8,918 nucleotides of DNA from a virus (taxonomy: Duplodnaviria > Heunggongvirae > Uroviricota > Caudoviricetes), in the IMG/VR virus record IMGVR_UViG_2534682329_000008; one strand, written 5' to 3'. Below the pieces are notes generated by a model that saw only the letters and a program-made list of their open reading frames with translations, was not told the origin of the DNA and did no database searches. A program made the position numbers and the translations under genes. Shown here one piece after another: positions 337 to 8,495 of this stretch. Position 1 is the first letter of the stretch. Every line of letters starts with the position of its first letter.

Positions 337-351
337 GTTGGAGTCACTACC
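1..351 (+). mobile_element. IS1 insertion sequence, right-hand ~350 bp (left part lies outside the window)
   Basis: Frame from position 1 translates to the InsB C-terminal region (…RWLFYAYD…VFGERT…[69 protein letters not shown]). The sequence then ends in the characteristic IS1 terminus …AAGTTGGAGTCACTACC at ~340-351. Junction position is uncertain by 1-2 bp. Confidence 0.9.
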
Positions 352-829
352 GTTTTTTCTTCCATGATAATTTAACCCGACTTGACTTTATCTCGCTTTC
401 TTCATTTGCCCTTTGTGCTATAAGTATGGCTTTTATTAATGAATATGGCTCATTCAAAGAGTCAATATTATAGACTGTATTGTCGCAAAGAGTTATAACA
501 TCAATACCGTGATTCAAAATCAATTTCAGACGTTCAATCGCTTCACCGACTTTTTCTCTTGAAAGTCTGTCCAGACTTTCAACTAACAATGTAGTTCCTG
601 GCAATATATAACCATGCTCTATAGCATCTAAAAATTCCGAAAAAGCTCCTGATTGTGCATGCTTTCCTTTGAATGCACTTAATCCTAAATCTTCATATGT
701 TATGGTATCAAGATAATAATCACTATTTACCTTTAACCATTCAGCAATAAGTCTTCTCTGTCGGTTTAATGAGTCGCCAGACATCTGACCTGGTGATGAA
801 AATCGCATATATGCTATGGCTTTTTTCAT
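352..829 (-). pseudogene. ybcK: Large serine recombinase (YbcK-like, DLP12 prophage recombinase), 3'-truncated by the IS1 insertion; only the ~160-aa N-terminal resolvase-type catalytic domain remains
   Basis: Translation MKKAIAYMRFSSPGQMSGDSLNRQRR… is a typical serine-recombinase N-terminus (catalytic Ser in the RFSS motif). The frame runs straight into the IS1 terminus and stops at 347-349 inside IS1. From memory the intact K-12 homologue is ~500 aa. The region is AT-rich. Confidence 0.8.
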
Positions 830-1083: not shown

Positions 1084-1416
1084 TTAATGTGGTGTGCTTC
1101 GTGACAATAAATTAATAATCAACACACCGGCACAAATCAACATCATGCCTATAATGGCTGGCAGGTCCAGCCGTTGGCCGAAAAATCCCCATGACAGTAA
1201 GCTAATCAGGACAATACCGACTCCTGACCAGATAGCATAAGCAATCCCTGTAGGAATATAAGCCAGCGTCTGAGCTAATAACCAGAATGATGCACAATAA
1301 CAAATAATTGTACCAACAGATGGCCATAACCGTGTAAAACCTTCTGAAAACTTCATTAAGGTTGTACCAATGACCTCTGCAAGTATTGCACCACCAAGAT
1401 AAATATAAGGGTTCAT
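1084..1416 (-). CDS. emrE: Small multidrug resistance (SMR) efflux transporter EmrE, 110 aa
   Basis: Translation from the internal ATG (1416) is MNPYIYLGGAILAEVIGTTLMKFSEGF…LLSRSTPH, matching E. coli EmrE from memory, with four predicted TM helices and the conserved Glu14 (…AILAEVIG…). SD AGGAAA lies ~6 nt upstream. The ORF-track start at 1470 is an unsupported N-terminal extension. Confidence 0.95.
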   Translation of the reverse strand: MNPYIYLGGAILAEVIGTTLMKFSEGFTRLWPSVGTIICYCASFWLLAQTLAYIPTGIAYAIWSGVGIVLISLLSWGFFGQRLDLPAIIGMMLICAGVLIINLLSRSTPH

Positions 1417-1786: not shown

Positions 1787-2484
1787 ACACTTGCTCCTTT
1801 CAGTCCGAACTTAGCTTTAATTTCTGCGATCTTCGCCAGAGCCTGTGCACGATTTAGAGGTCTACCGCCCATAACAGGAAGTTGTTTTACTGGTTCAGGT
1901 ATCGTCTCACCACGGTTAATTCGCGCTGTCATACAGGTCAGTTCATCGGCAGCCTTGCGCCGTAATTCCGCGTCAGTCAGCGCATTGGCCCGCATGTTCT
2001 GGTACAAGTTGGTAACCAACCAGTAGTGCGCGTTTGATTTCCATGGATAAGACTCTGCGTCCGGATACAGGCCACGCTTCCGGCAATACTCGTAAACCAT
2101 ATCAACCAGCTCGCTGGCGTTTGGCAGCCCGGCGGTAACGGATGTTTCTTCCCGGCACCAGGCAACAAACTGCCCGGGTGATGGCAGGAATGGTCGATTC
2201 TGCCGACGGGCTACGCGCATTCCTGCGTTAACCTGTTCCATTGTGGTGATCCCGTTTTCCCGGAAAGCCAGCACCCACTGGCGGCGGATTTCGTTCAGTT
2301 CGTTCTGGTCCCGGTTAGCCAGGCTCGCCGGGAAAGTTGCCAGTAACTGGCTGAACACACCATTGATGATCTGCGCTACCAGCTGTACCTGCGGCTTTTC
2401 GTCGTACTGTTCCGGCATGTTATTGGCGATCCGACGCATCTGCTCACGGTCAAAGTTAACCATCTGTGCGGCGATGTTTTTCAT
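1783..2484 (-). CDS. P: Replication protein P (DnaB helicase loader), 233 aa
   Basis: MKNIAAQMVNFDREQMRRIANNMPEQYDEKPQVQ…AEIKAKFGLKGASV is near-identical to lambda P from memory, with the same length. Translationally coupled to O (ATGA overlap at 2481-2484). Confidence 0.95.
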   Translation of the reverse strand: MKNIAAQMVNFDREQMRRIANNMPEQYDEKPQVQLVAQIINGVFSQLLATFPASLANRDQNELNEIRRQWVLAFRENGITTMEQVNAGMRVARRQNRPFLPSPGQFVAWCREETSVTAGLPNASELVDMVYEYCRKRGLYPDAESYPWKSNAHYWLVTNLYQNMRANALTDAELRRKAADELTCMTARINRGETIPEPVKQLPVMGGRPLNRAQALAKIAEIKAKFGLKGASV

Positions 2485-3410
2485 AAATCCACCCCATAAA
2501 TCCAGTCAGTGTTTGTCAGGTCGAGTTTTGGTTTGCCGGATGTCACGCCAGCCTGTTGCTTGTTTCGGTTGATTTCGAGCTGGGTCCACTTGTCGCGGAG
2601 TTTGGCCGGACTCAGCACGTTACCGGACCAGAAGTTGTCCTGGCATGCCCAGCGGAACAGCACGCACATGTCGCGGTGGTTACGTCCGTCACGTTCACGC
2701 ATCAGGCGGATATCGTTAGCCCACCCTGCAAAATTCGGTTTTCTGGCTGATGGCGCGATGGTCTTCACCATGTCAAACATCCACTCTGCGGCGGTCAGGT
2801 CTTCTGCTGTCCCCCACTTGCTGCCACTCTGAATTGCAGCATCCGGTTTCACCACAGGAAGGTCGTTTTCTGGCTGGTCAGAGGATTCGCCAGAATTCTC
2901 GGACGAAAAAGGTTTTATATTGTCTTTTGTTAGTTTGTCTTTTGTGTTTACCTGATTCGGGTAAACGCCTTTACCTGATTTGGGTAAACTTTTCTTACCT
3001 GATTCAGGTAAATTTACCTCTTTCAGGTAAACTTTATTTTTCTTACCTGATTCGGGTAATGTTGACCATTCACTGACCACATTATTAATGCCGATATTTC
3101 GCCCGCTCTGAATAAGAATCCCACGCTTTACCAGAACGCTTTTTGCAGCAGAACACTTGTGCGGCAATATCCCGGTCAATTCGGAAAGTTGCTCGTTGCT
3201 CACCCAATCCAGTCTTTTATTAAAGCCATATGTTTTGCGCATGACAGCCAGGAAGACCAGAAGCTGGTGCTGTGTTAATCCGGCCAGCATCACAGCTTCC
3301 AGCAACTCATTTGCAATGCGCGTATAACCATCATCGAGATCTGCCACGCGCGGCTCCTTTTGTGCCGCATCCGGCACTGGAAAATTGAATATCTCAGCAG
3401 TGTTTGCCAT
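2481..3410 (-). CDS. O: Replication initiator protein O (hybrid: non-lambda N-terminal iteron-binding domain, lambda-type C-terminal P-interaction domain)
   Basis: C-terminal ~110 aa (…EDLTAAEWMFDMVKTIAPSARKPNFAGWANDIRLMRERDGRNHRDMCVLFRWACQDNFWSGNVLSPAKLRDKWTQLEINRNKQQAGV…LDLTNTDWIYGVDL) match lambda O from memory. The N-terminal domain is only lambda-like in outline (ADLDDGY…RKTYGFNK). Start chosen at ATG 3410, preceded by a strong SD GGGAGGAATT; the longer track ORF to 3500 is judged an artefact. Iterons lie inside the gene. Confidence 0.9.
   Translation of the reverse strand: MANTAEIFNFPVPDAAQKEPRVADLDDGYTRIANELLEAVMLAGLTQHQLLVFLAVMRKTYGFNKRLDWVSNEQLSELTGILPHKCSAAKSVLVKRGILIQSGRNIGINNVVSEWSTLPESGKKNKVYLKEVNLPESGKKSLPKSGKGVYPNQVNTKDKLTKDNIKPFSSENSGESSDQPENDLPVVKPDAAIQSGSKWGTAEDLTAAEWMFDMVKTIAPSARKPNFAGWANDIRLMRERDGRNHRDMCVLFRWACQDNFWSGNVLSPAKLRDKWTQLEINRNKQQAGVTSGKPKLDLTNTDWIYGVDL
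2921..3070 (-). repeat. Origin of replication (ori-lambda type): five ~18-bp iterons plus an adjacent AT-rich region, embedded in the O coding sequence
   Basis: Five copies of the dyad TTACCTGATTCGGGTAA and variants at ~2958-2976, 2981-2999, 3005-3022, 3024-3042 and 3053-3070. In the O direction they are followed by the AT-rich tract 2921-2957 (GGTTTTATATTGTCTTTTGTTAGTTTGTCTTTTGTG). They encode the repetitive peptide …LPESGKK…LPESGKKSLPKSGK…. Confidence 0.8.
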
Positions 3411-3496
3411 AATTCCTCCCGCAATGAGTGTGTTACGATTTGCACCTGAAAGTCGGTTCTGTTCGCGCAGACCGGCTTTCGCCATTTCCGAACCTG

Positions 3497-4042
3497 TCAT
3501 ATTGCCCCCAGCATGGTGGTGACCATCGCCATCAGTGGACCAGCCAAATCCGGGTCCACACGAAACATCGACACAATGCCTTCACTCATCTCCTTCAGTT
3601 TCTGGTGGCGTGGTGCGTTGAGAATGACAGCCTGTTTTGCCTCACTGAGTTCCTTTTCCATTTCAGCCAGCCGAGCCATGTAGCTATCCTGCTCAACCAG
3701 GTGGCCGCGATATTCCAGCGGTAGTACCGCCAGAATTGCCGGGGTCAGTTCACGCACGTTATTTCGGTATTTTTCAGAATCGAATTTGTTATCGAGGAAG
3801 CGGAACAGCTTCTGGCGTGCACGGCTGACATCATCAGGGAAATCGATGGTGCCGCCGCCCTGCTCCCGATACTCATTCACAATGAGTGCGGCAACAACAT
3901 CCTGATTATCTGCAGCCGACCAGGCGCGAACGGCATCACGGATTTTTTCGTGGCCTGGCGCCTGTTTTGTTTGAGAACGATTTATCACCGCAGTCGGGCT
4001 AAATCCGCTAGTCTGTTGGTATGTAAGTGGTTGCATAGTCAT
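3497..4042 (-). CDS. Hypothetical protein in the cII position, downstream of cro; YdaT-like (my assignment is tentative)
   Basis: 181-aa ORF with no recognisable similarity to lambda CII. Its position between the cro-like gene and O, together with a YdaS-type Cro, is the arrangement seen with YdaT-family proteins in Rac-like prophages. Family assignment is from memory of the architecture only. Confidence 0.55.
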   Translation of the reverse strand: MTMQPLTYQQTSGFSPTAVINRSQTKQAPGHEKIRDAVRAWSAADNQDVVAALIVNEYREQGGGTIDFPDDVSRARQKLFRFLDNKFDSEKYRNNVRELTPAILAVLPLEYRGHLVEQDSYMARLAEMEKELSEAKQAVILNAPRHQKLKEMSEGIVSMFRVDPDLAGPLMAMVTTMLGAI

Positions 4043-4066
4043 TGCCTTATCAGTTAACGCCGCAGT

Positions 4067-4294
4067 TTAGGCGGCAGAATTACTCGCGTTAAACAATGGT
4101 GCGAGGTCGGGACGAATATCTGCTGGTTTAATCTTTCCACCAGTGGCTGAGACAATTTTCATTACATAGCGGGCATCAATTCCGCCACCGTGTAGCCAAC
4201 GCCAAACTGTGGGTTGGGCTACACCGCATAGATCTGCCAGTCGTTTTTGACTACCTGTAATACTGATTGCGAGTTGAATGGTTTGATTTGTCAT
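4067..4294 (-). CDS. Cro-like HTH repressor (YdaS/Cro family), 75 aa
   Basis: HTH motif …GSQKRLADLCGVAQPTVWRWLHGG… and a C-terminal …GGKIKPADIRPDL… typical of the YdaS/Cro-like family. Divergent from the cI-like gene across an operator region. Start taken at ATG 4294, with SD AGGA 8 nt upstream on the minus strand; the track start at 4300 is a TTG two codons upstream. Confidence 0.75.
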   Translation of the reverse strand: MTNQTIQLAISITGSQKRLADLCGVAQPTVWRWLHGGGIDARYVMKIVSATGGKIKPADIRPDLAPLFNASNSAA

Positions 4295-4300
4295 TATCAA

Positions 4301-4404
4301 TTCCTATTGGTATTGCAATGAATAAATAATAGCAATACGTATTAATCCAAGCAATAGCAAAACGTGTTTTGACCATCAATACGCAAGCGTATAAATTAAA
4401 ACTT
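4301..4404. promoter_or_regulatory. OR-like divergent promoter/operator region: PR-like promoter (minus strand) for cro and PRM-like promoter (plus strand) giving a near-leaderless cI mRNA
   Basis: Minus strand: -35 TTGCTT (4349-4354), 17-bp spacer, -10 TATTAT (4326-4331). Plus strand: -35 TTGACC (4369-4374), 15-16 bp spacer, -10 TATAAA/ATAAAT (4390-4396), placing +1 within a few nt of the cI ATG at 4405, which has no SD. The 8-mer AATAGCAA occurs at 4328-4335 and 4353-4360, and ATTGCAAT at 4312-4319. Confidence 0.55.
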
Positions 4405-5097
4405 ATGAAAAAAGAAACTCTTGCTGATCGCTTAAACCTAGCGATGGAACAATCTGGAATGTCTCAAGGCGCTCTTGCAAAGGCGTCTGGCGTAGCTCAA
4501 CCCACAATCTGGAGACTGACAAGCGGCAACGCTCGCGGCTCAACAAAAATTGTTGAAATAGCTAATGCATTGGGTGTTCGAACAGAATGGCTCTCATCAG
4601 GCATAGGCCCGATGAGAAATGACGGTCAACAATCAGGGAAGCCTGCTGTCAGCCATTCAAAATACTTCAAGATTGACGTTCTTGATATAGAAGTGAGTGC
4701 CGGGCCGGGAGTCATCAACCGTGAGTTTGTAGAAGTTCTACGCTCGGTTGAGTACTCGTTTGACGATGCTCGTCACATGTTCGATGGTAGGAAGGCAGAA
4801 AATATCCGCATCATTAACGTACGCGGTGACAGCATGTCAGGAACGATCGAACCAGGTGATCTGCTGTTCGTTGATATCACGGTTAAATCTTTCGACGGTG
4901 ATGGTATCTATGCGTTTCTGTATGACGACACCGCCCATGTAAAGCGCCTGCAAATGATGAAGGATAAGCTACTGGTTATCTCTGATAACAAGAGCTACTC
5001 ACCGTGGGACCCGATCGAGAAAGACGAGATGAACCGGGTATTCATATTCGGTAAGGTTATTGGGAGCATGCCGCAGACGTACAGAAAACACGGATAA
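4405..5097 (+). CDS. cI: cI-like prophage repressor: N-terminal XRE-type HTH plus C-terminal LexA/S24 autopeptidase domain
   Basis: HTH …SQGALAKASGVAQPTIWRLTSG…; a candidate Ala-Gly cleavage site in the linker (EVSAGPG); S24 catalytic motifs …VRGDSMSGTIEPGDLLFVD… (Ser nucleophile) and …AHVKRL… (Lys). Start placed at ATG 4405 (MKKETLADRL…); the track start at 4369 is a TTG that coincides with the promoter -35. Confidence 0.85.
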   Translation: MKKETLADRLNLAMEQSGMSQGALAKASGVAQPTIWRLTSGNARGSTKIVEIANALGVRTEWLSSGIGPMRNDGQQSGKPAVSHSKYFKIDVLDIEVSAGPGVINREFVEVLRSVEYSFDDARHMFDGRKAENIRIINVRGDSMSGTIEPGDLLFVDITVKSFDGDGIYAFLYDDTAHVKRLQMMKDKLLVISDNKSYSPWDPIEKDEMNRVFIFGKVIGSMPQTYRKHG

Positions 5098-5179: not shown

Positions 5180-5443
5180 ATGAGTAATAAAACACTTGTT
5201 AAAAAATCAAATAACTGTGTCGATGCATACGCCGACGCGTTTGGCTACTCTTCGTTTGGTGACGGCTCTCAGCGCCTAGGTTCAATTTCTTTTTTTCATA
5301 ATGTAACTGAATGGCCTGTTGATGAAAGTGACGATGTTGAGAACATAAAGTACAACATTGCAACCATTAGAATGCCCGAAGAATTGATGCTTAAATTGGC
5401 TGACTTCATTCGCGACCAGCATGACAAAGCTAAAACAAACTAA
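5180..5443 (+). CDS. Hypothetical 87-aa protein, first gene of an immunity-region accessory cassette (moron)
   Basis: ATG with SD (GGGAAAGG) ~6 nt upstream. Markedly AT-rich relative to flanking phage genes. Co-oriented downstream of cI. No family recognised; the C-terminal segment …IATIRMPEELMLKLADFIRDQ… has a beta-strand/helix pattern faintly reminiscent of a ribbon-helix-helix, but is too short to call. Confidence 0.5.
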   Translation: MSNKTLVKKSNNCVDAYADAFGYSSFGDGSQRLGSISFFHNVTEWPVDESDDVENIKYNIATIRMPEELMLKLADFIRDQHDKAKTN

Positions 5444-5455
5444 TCGTAATTAATT

Positions 5456-5899
5456 ATGAAACACGATTATTACGAAGCTCCAAACCTAAATGATAAAATT
5501 GCAAAGGCGGCAAAATCATTTTGTTTGCACTCCAGTGCGTCTTCCCAGCTAGCAGGTATATCTGGAAAAAGATGGGACATGCTACAATCAAGTGGTAGCA
5601 GTGGGTCTGGGAGTGATAACATGCCTGAAAAAGTTGCAAAACTGGAGTCCGATGTTGCTCATATCAAACGAGACGTTGATGAACTTAAAACAGACGTTAA
5701 AGCTATCGACAAAAATATGATAACTATTCTTGCACGTCTGGACTCTATAAAAGAATCCTTAACAAACAAGCCATCAAGTGATGCTGTCGATAGAAAGATT
5801 TCAGACGCAAAGCTTGCGGTATTGCTTGGTGTTCCAGCAATCATCGCTGCAGGAACAGGACTTTATAAGCTATCAATGTACTTTTTCTTTAGTGCTTAA
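5456..5899 (+). CDS. Hypothetical coiled-coil protein with a C-terminal transmembrane anchor (XhlA-like architecture), 147 aa (or 92 aa if translated from the internal ATG at 5621)
   Basis: Heptad-like charged coiled-coil segment (KLESDVAHIKRDVDELKTDVKAIDKNMITILARLDSIKESL), then the hydrophobic stretch LAVLLGVPAIIAAGTGLYKL near the C-terminus. The first ATG at 5456 has no SD, whereas the internal in-frame ATG at 5621 is preceded by GGAG at 5609-5612. AT-rich. Confidence 0.55.
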   Translation: MKHDYYEAPNLNDKIAKAAKSFCLHSSASSQLAGISGKRWDMLQSSGSSGSGSDNMPEKVAKLESDVAHIKRDVDELKTDVKAIDKNMITILARLDSIKESLTNKPSSDAVDRKISDAKLAVLLGVPAIIAAGTGLYKLSMYFFFSA

Positions 5900-5974
5900 G
5901 AAAATGCTCGCACCCTTGCATTAGGTAAAGCGATTTTTCATTCCCCATTACCCTCGCTCTTAACCAATCATCTA

Positions 5975-6003
5975 AACCCGGCCACCGTGCCGGGTTTTCT
6001 TTT
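5975..6003 (+). terminator. Rho-independent terminator ending the cI-orf87-orf147 operon (t_imm analogue)
   Basis: Stem CCCGGC (5977-5982) / GCCGGG (5989-5994), 6-nt loop, followed by TTTTCTTTT (5995-6003). Confidence 0.75.
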
Positions 6004-6089: not shown

Positions 6090-6178
6090 TTTTTGCTATC
6101 AAACATTTAATATCAAAACACATCAACTAATAGCAACAAGTATTGATATCACCAATAGCAATAGCTATTATCACCATA
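6090..6178 (+). promoter_or_regulatory. OL/PL-like operator-promoter driving the rightward (plus-strand) early operon towards gam-bet-exo
   Basis: -35 TTGATA (6143-6148), 17-bp spacer, -10 TATTAT (6166-6171). The same AATAGCAA 8-mer as in the OR region occurs at 6129-6136 and 6154-6161, the latter inside the spacer, with a 7/8 inverted copy TTGCTATC at 6093-6100. Confidence 0.55.
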
Positions 6179-6364: not shown

Positions 6365-6655
6365 ATGACAACCGGCGGCCATCCACCGCCTGAATATGCG
6401 CAGAAGTCTCTATATGTTCAGCAGCCCAGCTTACGGGCAGGAGTTTTTATGGTTCATCAACATTACGGAACGCAGACCGTTAATCGCGGTGCGGTCATGC
6501 CAGGCATGCTGGTCAAACACAAAGATGGTACCTGGACTGCATCAGCTAATTTACGCGGACGGCTTTATCTGCATCGCGGCATCGAGCGCACTTATACCCG
6601 TGATTTGCTCGTGGAAGTTTTTCTCGACGGACGCGGTAACGGCCTCAATCACTAA
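6365..6655 (+). CDS. Hypothetical 96-aa protein between PL and gam (kil/cIII position)
   Basis: ATG 6365 with SD GAGG ~10 nt upstream; stop TAA 6653-6655. No similarity to lambda N, cIII or Kil that I can recognise. The track ORF from a TTG at 6245 is a longer alternative with no SD. Confidence 0.4.
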
Positions 6656-6730
6656 TCCCCTTTCCTGTTTTCCTAATCAGCCTGGCATTTCGCGGGCGAT
6701 ATTTTCACAGCCATTTTCAGGAGTTCAGCC

Positions 6731-7818: not shown

Positions 7819-8495
7819 CACCGGACATTATCCTGCAGCGTACCGGGATCGACGTGAGAGCTGTCGAACAGGGGGATGATGCGTGGCACAAATTACGGCT
7901 CGGCGTCATCACCGCTTCAGAAGTTCACAACGTGATAGCAAAGCCCCGCTCAGGAAAGAAGTGGCCTGACATGAAAATGTCCTACTTCCACACCCTGCTG
8001 GCTGAGGTTTGCACCGGTGTGGCTCCGGAAGTTAATGCTAAGGCGCTGGCCTGGGGAAAACAGTACGAGAACGACGCCAGAGCCCTGTTTGAGTTTACTT
8101 CCGGCGTGAATGTTACTGAATCCCCGATCATCTATCGCGACGAAAGTATGCGCACCGCCTGCTCTCCCGATGGTTTATGCAGTGACGGCAACGGCCTTGA
8201 ACTGAAATGCCCGTTTACCTCCCGGGATTTCATGAAATTCCGGCTCGGTGGTTTCGAGGCAATAAAATCGGCTTACATGGCCCAGGTGCAGTACAGCATG
8301 TGGGTGACGCGAAAAGATGCCTGGTACTTTGCCAACTATGACCCGCGTATGAAGCGTGAAGGACTGCATTATGTCGTGGTTGAGCGGGATGAAAAGTACA
8401 TGGCGAGTTTTAACGAGATGGTGCCGGAGTTCATCGAAAAAATGGACGAGGCACTGGCTGAAATTGGTTTTGTATTTGGGGAGCAATGGCGATGA
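7815..8495 (+). CDS. exo: Exo (Red-alpha) 5'-3' dsDNA exonuclease, 226 aa
   Basis: [65 protein letters not shown]… is near-identical to lambda Exo from memory, with the same length. Confidence 0.97.

Follow-up and report, generated by a model that had tools for sequence, protein, structure and literature searches.

A YdaS/YdaT-type gene pair in the cro and cII positions of a DLP12-like prophage, and a candidate establishment promoter within the cII gene

The stretch of viral DNA studied here (Caudoviricetes; IMG/VR record IMGVR_UViG_2534682329_000008; 8,918 nucleotides in full, called the window below) carries two adjacent genes at positions 3497-4294, in the places of cro and cII in a lambdoid immunity region. 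Both open reading frames (ORFs) exist at the coordinates given in the original prediction, and they lie on the minus strand. With a probability of about 0.85 we regard the pair as the head of the rightward early operon of a DLP12-like prophage, consisting of a YdaS-type Cro and a phi80-type CII, with the regulatory mechanism proposed below. The 75-amino-acid protein is a Cro analogue, and the 179-amino-acid protein is a bona fide phi80-type phage cII allele and not merely YdaT-like. The YdaS/YdaT-type Cro/CII identity was already known from the literature and from annotation. The candidate promoter embedded in the cII gene is the only new element of this analysis.

The cro-position gene (4067..4294, minus strand) encodes a helix-turn-helix (HTH) protein, which matches the YdaS_toxin family (Pfam: PF15943) with 54.6 bits against a cut-off of 30 (E-value 9.6e-15) and PHROG 35 'transcriptional repressor' with an E-value of 9e-24. 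The original prediction had associated an IRPDL motif in its C-terminal part with YdaS-type Cro proteins. This motif is present at residues 60-64 and aligns with ELRPDI of the Rac prophage YdaS and with ELRPDV of the Cro protein of a Xylella prophage (PDB: 3bd1), which is also the match in the structure database. BLASTP aligns the protein with YdaS of the K-12 Rac prophage at 32% identity over 63 amino acids (E-value 6e-10), and it is 57% identical to the HK639 product in the same position, which is annotated as 'transcriptional repressor'. A profile score above the cut-off, the HTH, the C-terminal (I/L)RPD(L/I/V) motif and the place as first gene after the divergent operator region are thus all found together, as is characteristic of the YdaS/Cro family.

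The cII-position protein had been given a length of 181 amino acids. This length holds for a start at the ATG at 4042, but the conserved start is the ATG at 4036, which gives 179 amino acids. Where phages combine this cII allele with another cro, the ATG at 4042 is missing and homology begins at position 4036. The ATG there follows a Shine-Dalgarno sequence and is the start used in RefSeq and in the phage records (540 nucleotides). Because the upstream ATG is not conserved in the alignment of phage loci and homology runs from the Shine-Dalgarno-preceded ATG, we define the cII gene as 3497..4036 (minus strand); the two extra codons ATG ACT (4037..4042, minus strand) probably do not contain the true start. 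A start at codon 17, where the PHROG profile begins, was also considered and judged unlikely. Here and below, 57 distinct homologous genes from phages and 50-odd Enterobacteriaceae species were compared: codon 17 is CTG, TTG or GTG in 17 of them, codon 1 is an ATG with a Shine-Dalgarno sequence in all lineages, and indels past codon 22 are in frame.

The 179-amino-acid protein matches the YdaT_toxin family (Pfam: PF06254) over residues 69-156 with 102 bits (cut-off 21; E-value 2.4e-29) and PHROG 163 'CII-like transcriptional activator' with an E-value of 7e-67. No other Pfam family was found for it at E <= 0.01, and no NCBIfam model matches it, which is uninformative. Its closest named or characterised relative is CII of phage phi80, with 66.7% identity over all 179 residues, and 16 records of cultured E. 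coli phages contain genes under the name cII whose identity to it is 95.5-100%. The RefSeq name is 'toxin YdaT domain-containing protein'. With YdaT of K-12 Rac it shares 35% identity over 96 amino acids (BLASTP, E-value 5e-12); with lambda CII no BLASTP alignment was obtained at E <= 100, in line with the expected lack of recognisable similarity. An exhaustive HMMER search yielded only 112 clusters at 50% identity, so the family is narrow, and the closer relatives come mostly from Enterobacteriaceae prophages. The synteny cI / cro / cII / O / P / ren, with the repressor divergent from the other genes, also speaks for the identity of the pair. The assignment of the pair to the YdaS-YdaT module and not to lambda cro-cII is therefore borne out by profiles for both proteins, and what the larger one shows is a clear YdaT match rather than homology to another class of regulator. 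Profile, structure and sequence matches agree on the identity of both proteins; the scores of the family matches exceed chance by far, and no test made in this analysis contradicted the identity.

The top solved structures for the cII-position protein are, by sequence and by fold, those of the CP-933P YdaT (PDB: 8bt1 and 3c4r). These are also the only significant Foldseek matches of its AlphaFold2 model (mean predicted local distance difference test, pLDDT, of 68.8), with a probability of 1.0, a template modelling score of 0.58-0.63 on the target and 118-122 aligned columns. In the model residues 1-28 form a disordered N-terminal extension, residues 29-110 a POU-like HTH domain with helices at 29-40, 45-58, 70-82 (the recognition helix), 88-104 and 107-110, and residues 119-138 a long helix that is the counterpart of the YdaT tetramerisation helix. 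Nine of the 14 recognition-helix positions of the CP-933P protein are identical in the window protein, including R72, Q75, K76 and R79. In our alignment R79 is invariant across the phi80, CP-933P-like, Klebsiella and Rac proteins, and R72, R74, Q75 and K76 are invariant within the phi80 type. R79 corresponds to Arg60 of CP-933P YdaT, the sole recognition-helix residue reported to be fully conserved in the family (PMC9986795), and to R57 of Rac YdaT, where the double mutant H56A/R57A lost DNA binding (PMC11879457).

The C-terminal extension of about 40 residues (3497-3620, residues 139-179) is conserved in phi80-type CII and missing from the Rac and CP-933P YdaT proteins. Two extra helices (143-160 and 162-177) are predicted in it, and its last residues form the hydrophobic tail GPLMAMVTTMLGAI. 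Lambda CII has a stability or degradation determinant for FtsH at its C-terminus; that the extension might play such a part here is pure speculation by analogy.

A strict YdaT box is absent near the cII start at up to three mismatches. When the natural variants seen in relatives were allowed, and only then, a YdaT-box-like dyad emerged at 3971..3988, within cII codons 17-22. Its sense strand reads GTGATA-AATCGT-TCTCAA (TTGAGAACGATTTATCAC on the plus strand) and agrees at 10 of 12 positions with the consensus TTGATW-N6-WATCAA, which we took from PMC9986795 and PMC11879457. We propose it as the CII site on account of its positional conservation and of the synonymous constraint on it. The dyad is found at the same position in 57/57 homologues, with an invariant nTGAT(A/T) half-site. 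The codon for Ile18 is ATA in 47 genes, ATT in ten and ATC in none, although ATC makes up 57% of the other Ile codons of the same genes. Gln22 is encoded by CAA in 76% of cases, compared to 26% elsewhere, and at codon 21, which stands for six different amino acids, the third base is always T.

On the antisense strand, 20 nucleotides past the dyad, all 57 genes have TAnnnT, for which the background is 0.9%; this invariance at a fixed offset marks the window's TAGTCT (4009..4014, plus strand) as a candidate -10 hexamer. Codon 9, which supplies the 'A' of the hexamer, encodes six amino acids and has T as third base in 100% of the genes. An invariant third base occurs in only 6 of the 177 aligned codon columns. 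Three of these are Met or Trp columns and the other three are codons 9, 17 and 21, exactly the -10 'TA' and the two half-sites. Since the bases under constraint make up two half-sites around a free spacer together with three key -10 positions, the constraint in codons 1-22 is, as judged from these alignments, selection on the DNA and not on the protein. The centre of the dyad lies about 41.5 base pairs (bp) ahead of the predicted start (near 4020-4022, plus strand), as is typical of a class II activator site. A scan of four phi80-type and Rac stretches for the composite pattern of box and hexamer gave a single match in each and none elsewhere; there is no second copy in the window, in phage 4A7, in the phi80 right arm or in the DLP12-like locus. 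We consider the dyad and the TAnnnT hexamer to be probably a PRE-like promoter inside the cII gene. From these patterns we infer the site to which CII binds, the promoter itself and the direction in which CII regulates.

Other YdaT lineages show a comparable arrangement. In Rac the composite pattern falls on the footprinted YdaT box, which is followed leftward by TATGAT exactly 20 nucleotides on (3695-3652 of the Rac stretch). The CP-933P-like phage Tritos has the identical box sequence and then TAGTTT at 21 nucleotides (602-560 of the Tritos stretch), and Klebsiella phage ST405 has a box-like dyad and then TAGCAT at 20 nucleotides. This suggests a promoter right next to the box in the Rac and CP-933P-like systems as well. 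YdaS and YdaT of CP-933P act like Cro and CII and not as a toxin-antitoxin (TA) pair, and this YdaT is homologous to phi80 CII (PMC8630535). Its structure has a POU-like HTH and a tetramerising helix, and it binds the operator TTGATT-N6-AATCAA, an inverted repeat, as a symmetric tetramer (PMC9986795). The Rac box ATGATTCATGAAAATCAA was mapped over the ydaT start codon and is needed for activation of leftward racR transcription (PMC11879457). The two YdaT proteins are about 30% identical, yet the Rac protein bound the CP-933P box in vitro, and in vivo the Rac box-dependent promoter was activated by either of them (PMC11879457). YdaT-dependent leftward activation has been measured for both Rac and CP-933P (PMC11879457, PMC8630535).

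Besides the embedded dyad, the strict search detected one near-perfect site in the window, TTGATTTGTCATTATCAA at 4283..4300, which matches TTGATW-N6-WATCAA exactly (0.15 expected at up to one mismatch). This box covers the Shine-Dalgarno spacer and the ATG of cro and is a possible, if uncertain, second CII site. As a general family feature we rejected it: 55 of 56 other loci have no box upstream of cro, and phage 4A7 has one with a mismatch.

The window ends in an IS1 element short of the nin region, so the following statements on that region rest on relatives. Phage 4A7 (NC_049946) has one perfect YdaT box, at 42998-43015, about 165 bp upstream of ybcN; the chance expectation for a perfect box in 49 kb is estimated at about 0.003. 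In an alignment of eight phages and prophages the nin-region homology begins exactly at this box, whose half-sites TTGAT(T/A) and (A/T)ATCA(A/T) are conserved around a free 6-nucleotide spacer. The left half doubles as the -35 element of a near-consensus promoter (17 nucleotides, then CATAAT), so that the box overlaps the -35 element and the spacer. Box and promoter together are located at 42998-43026 in 4A7, at 14719-14747 in the phi80 stretch and at 8286-8314 in the K-12 DLP12 stretch. Every complete phage record whose match includes the nin box carries a phi80-type cII. This arrangement suggests that transcription running rightward to rusA and Q is repressed, an effect that would have its functional counterpart in lambda PaQ. 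In K-12, DLP12 has lost its own cII but retains a perfect box (TTGATT-TTGGGA-AATCAA) ahead of ylcH, and in this strain Rac alone still encodes a YdaT. Rac YdaT may thus act on the ylcH-ybcN-rusA-quuD genes of DLP12, which the Rac paper does not mention (PMC11879457).

Downstream of the nin promoter two hairpins are found whose sequence varies between phages while the pairing is kept, the first being CACCGGAG..CTCCGGTG versus CTGCCAGCGG..CCCTGGCAG and the second GCGC..GCGC. They are located at 43030-43100 in 4A7, at 14752-14815 in the phi80 stretch (IR4 in the phi80 record) and at 82-110 in the phage 82 stretch, and the phage 82 record labels the first one as a 'possible regulator-binding site'. 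The two hairpins might serve as a leader RNA element before orf33/ylcH.

We propose the following mechanism. Upon infection or derepression, PR would transcribe cro and cII. CII would then bind the dyad nTGATA-N6-nnTCAA within its own codons 17-22 (3971-3988) and, with this site centred some 41.5 bp ahead of the start, recruit RNA polymerase to a weak leftward promoter with TAGTCT at 4009-4014 as -10 and a start near 4021. The leftward transcript would run antisense through cro into cI and so establish repression. In complete relatives, CII would in addition repress the strong promoter upstream of ybcN/ninB, and Q would be delayed. In its full form, this account has the first 22 codons of phi80-type cII overprinted on a CII-dependent establishment promoter (box at -41.5 plus TAnnnT, antisense through cro to cI), the activated promoters of Rac and CP-933P next to their boxes, the ybcN/ninB promoter shut, and cross-talk in K-12; we give it an even chance. 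The N-terminal extension of phi80-type CII would then be translated promoter DNA. An extension of the frame over the whole promoter would explain why the 28-residue N-terminal extension is disordered.

Several points weigh against this account. The dyad reaches only 10 of 12 positions of the published box, and many homologues have a weak right half, GCTCAA. As the 57 genes are related to one another, their counts are not independent events. A consensus promoter scan of 3400-4500 found only PRM and nothing at the dyad, as is expected for an activator-dependent promoter; the scan therefore gives no support either. The structure model is of moderate confidence at its mean pLDDT of 68.8. Our literature search returned no binding or transcription data for the window protein or phi80 CII and no described phi80 PRE. 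Furthermore, the published promoter assignments differ from ours: PracR4 was placed about 190 bp from the Rac box (PMC11879457), and for CP-933P the operator OM is described as lying over the transcription start of PRE933P (PMC9986795). Moreover, the xis-int region of phage 4A7 has no YdaT box at up to three mismatches and Q of 4A7 has only a 3-mismatch match, at its start. With no box near int or within Q, the three-promoter scheme of lambda is not reproduced.

One alternative is that the protein is a repressor only, a YdaT-family regulator that acts, for example, on the nin promoter and on PR/cro through 4283-4300, with the dyad at the 5' end of its own gene as an autoregulatory roadblock. 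The nin box, which lies over the -35 and spacer of a near-consensus promoter, has repressor geometry, and the exact box in the window covers the cro start. Rac YdaT lowers racR expression from its intergenic sites (PMC11879457), and the structural paper terms YdaT a repressor (PMC9986795). A roadblock, however, leaves unexplained the TAnnnT hexamer, fixed at 20 nucleotides in 57/57 homologues and seen at 20-21 nucleotides in three other YdaT lineages. Leftward activation by YdaT was measured in two systems (PMC8630535, PMC11879457), and the box at the cro start is not conserved in the family. We therefore regard a pure repressor as unlikely.

The constraint on codons 1-22 might also reflect an RNA-level feature of the cII mRNA such as an initiation structure, an RNase site or antisense pairing like that of lambda oop or phi80 M3. 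RNA constraints are frequent in 5' coding regions, third-base conservation is somewhat higher over codons 1-22 (0.71 compared to 0.60), a conserved hairpin lies just upstream, and phi80 and HK639 carry an oop-like M3 RNA beside cII. This RNA is located at the 3' end of cII, however, not at the 5' end, and Rfam gave no match. The constrained bases are the experimentally defined YdaT half-sites around a free 6-nucleotide spacer together with three key -10 positions, a pattern of DNA recognition and not of base pairing, which makes an RNA-level origin improbable.

The remaining reading, a YdaS/YdaT-type TA pair with the larger protein as toxin and the small HTH protein as antitoxin and autoregulator, can be set aside as very improbable: the Pfam family names and the RefSeq name still say 'toxin', and over-expressed Rac YdaT kills cells (PMC11879457, PMC5700377), but no toxicity was detected for CP-933P YdaT (PMC8630535), the TA reading was explicitly rejected for the homologues (PMC8630535, PMC5917428), and the genes lie between an S24 repressor and O/P in a complete immunity region. 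In addition, the same cII allele (96-98% identical) stands behind two unrelated cI/cro pairs in plaque-forming cultured phages, and the mosaic sequences join exactly at the ATG of cII; the two proteins are thus not a co-evolving pair, and the co-inheritance of a TA module fails. Rac YdaT binds the rcsA promoter and its over-expression phenotype goes along with mis-regulation of the RcsA/B regulon (PMC11879457), which indicates that it acts as a transcription factor. The history recounted in the original prediction, a TA annotation followed by reinterpretation as Cro and CII analogues, agrees with the literature (PMC8630535, PMC9986795, PMC5917428). The suggested effect of the larger protein on host growth upon derepression stays an analogy, to a Rac protein that is toxic when over-expressed and a CP-933P protein for which no toxicity was detected.

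The hairpin upstream of cII is the GC-rich GCCGC-N7-GCGGC at 4059..4075 (minus strand), which lies across the cro stop codon, 39 nucleotides ahead of the cII ATG. It occurs once in the window (0.08 expected) and folds with -9 kcal/mol (z-score -2.1). A regular-expression scan detected a hairpin in 22 of the 57 distinct cro/cII junctions, in 21 of them at this position (-36 to -39). The junction hairpins sit behind unrelated cro genes, all ending in Ala-Ala-stop, and in many loci the conserved leader CCTAACCACGAAAGGGAAAGCA comes next. Their role might be that of a linker or of a boundary between modules, or else that of an RNA element. The hairpin lacks a U-tract and is therefore not an intrinsic terminator, and the consensus scan of 3400-4500 found no terminator between cro and cII. 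It was also rejected as one half of a nutL/nutR pair, as it is the only copy in the window.

Among the known systems, CII of phi80 (JX871397 / NC_021190) and its allies in HK639, HK225, mEp237, 4A7 and the PhiR phages are closest and align over the full length (179-180 amino acids). They share the place between a cro-type gene and the replication genes, the 28-residue N-terminal extension, the two extra C-terminal helices, the embedded dyad and the TAnnnT hexamer. In contrast to phi80, the window has a YdaS-type Cro, to which phi80 gene 30 is only 30% identical, and lambda-type O/P where phi80 has genes 15/14. There is also no space left for an oop/M3 RNA, because cII overlaps O by 4 nucleotides.

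The CP-933P YdaT shares the Pfam family, the fold and the recognition-helix residues given above, and Cro/CII roles and the TTGATT-N6-AATCAA operator are experimentally supported for this pair (PMC8630535, PMC9986795). It differs in being only 26-29% identical and, with 141 amino acids, in having no counterpart of residues 1-28 or of the last 40 residues. The box of the CP-933P-like phage Tritos lies over the start codon and not over codons 17-22, and the repressor of CP-933P is PaaR2 with TA cargo, not an S24 repressor. K-12 Rac has in common with the window the sequence similarity of both proteins (35% for YdaT, 32% for YdaS), the divergent repressor and the box followed by a -10-like hexamer at 20 nucleotides; activation of leftward repressor transcription by its YdaT (PMC11879457) corresponds to the role proposed here. 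The Rac YdaT is 140 amino acids long, however, and its repressor RacR is not of the S24 type. Over-expression of this YdaT is toxic, the protein binds the promoter of the host gene rcsA, and RacR and OxyR silence it (PMC11879457).

The gene order and logic are shared with lambda as well, although the CII proteins have no sequence similarity and the Cro proteins only a marginal HTH similarity (E-value 0.004). In lambda, the CII site and part of PRE lie in the 5' end of the cII gene itself, and PRE transcription runs antisense through cro to cI. Lambda CII has 97 amino acids and binds the direct repeat TTGC-N6-TTGC at -35. Counterparts of lambda PI and PaQ were not found in the int and Q regions of phage 4A7 or by the composite-pattern scan.

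The window comes from a lambdoid E. coli prophage that is DLP12-like (Bievrevirus-type). Its best chromosomal matches are 98% identical prophages adjoining argU/intD, and its immunity region is common to the plaque-forming phages 4A7 (Bievrevirus), D2, 1W, 3W, Perceval and PhiR70_1, with 97-99.8% identity. On the minus strand the cro-type gene (4294-4067) and the cII-position gene (4036-3497) are followed by O (3500-2481), P, ren, emrE and ybcK. The plus strand holds an S24-type cI (4405-5097), two small ORFs, a PL/OL block, kil, gam, bet and exo. The replication gene O (2481..3500, minus strand; Pfam Phage_rep_O, E-value 4e-34) overlaps the cII stop by 4 nucleotides, and as the adjoining gene it fixes the cII-position assignment. 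Within O, five 20-nucleotide ori iterons (TTTACCTGATTCGGGTAAAC) at 2947-3061 mark the replication origin.

The cI-type repressor (4405..5097, plus strand) has 230 amino acids with an HTH (HTH_3) and an S24 self-cleaving peptidase (Peptidase_S24, E-value 1.3e-18). Its gene is divergent from cro and cII, and its counterpart in phage 4A7 is annotated as 'CI-like repressor'. A promoter scan gave a PRM-like promoter TTGACC-17-TAAATT (4369..4397, plus strand), which ends 7 nucleotides short of the cI ATG at 4405 and thus implies a leaderless cI mRNA. A repeat scan located the OR repeats at 4307-4360, directly upstream of the cro-position gene, and the operator block has a second copy (OL) at 6125-6177.

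The cI operon is closed by an intrinsic terminator at 5974-5997, next to which lies the OL/PL block with the PL candidate TTGATA-17-TATTAT at 6143-6171. The roughly 270 nucleotides from this block to kil (about 6451-6657) contain no N-like ORF, and the annotation of phage 4A7 likewise shows no feature from the gene after cI up to kil. The phage may use a put-like RNA for antitermination, of the kind found in HK022 and HK639, or may lack antitermination; at permissive thresholds Rfam gave chance-level microRNA and small RNA matches only, and no put, nut or oop family. The two small ORFs after cI, 5180-5443 (plus strand; 87 amino acids; PHROG 4231) and 5456-5899 (plus strand; 147 amino acids; PHROG 3556), belong to PHROG families of unknown function. 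They occupy the place of lambda rexAB, which sister phages fill with GevT/GevA, an ASCH-domain protein or a lipoprotein, so that it looks like a variable cargo or defence slot. The gene emrE (1084-1416, minus strand), which encodes a small multidrug efflux pump, lies between ren and ybcK as phage cargo; the plaque-forming phage 4A7 carries it likewise. The serine-recombinase gene ybcK (347-829, minus strand) is interrupted after 160 codons by an IS1 end (transposase C-terminal ORF at 43-336), so that rightward of emrE this copy of the prophage is rearranged or truncated.

The identity of the pair as such re-derives the annotation and three recent papers, and it confirms that the 'toxin' label on a widespread Enterobacteriaceae prophage gene is misleading. 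The embedded-promoter prediction states where a YdaT-type CII would act, concretely enough for tests at single-base resolution, with a second boxed promoter before nin/Q. If it is true, the phi80-type lysogeny switch would have a defined PRE, and the discordant promoter assignments of Rac and CP-933P would be reconciled. It would also suggest a cross-prophage link in K-12, from the YdaT of Rac to the ylcH-ybcN-rusA-quuD genes of DLP12.

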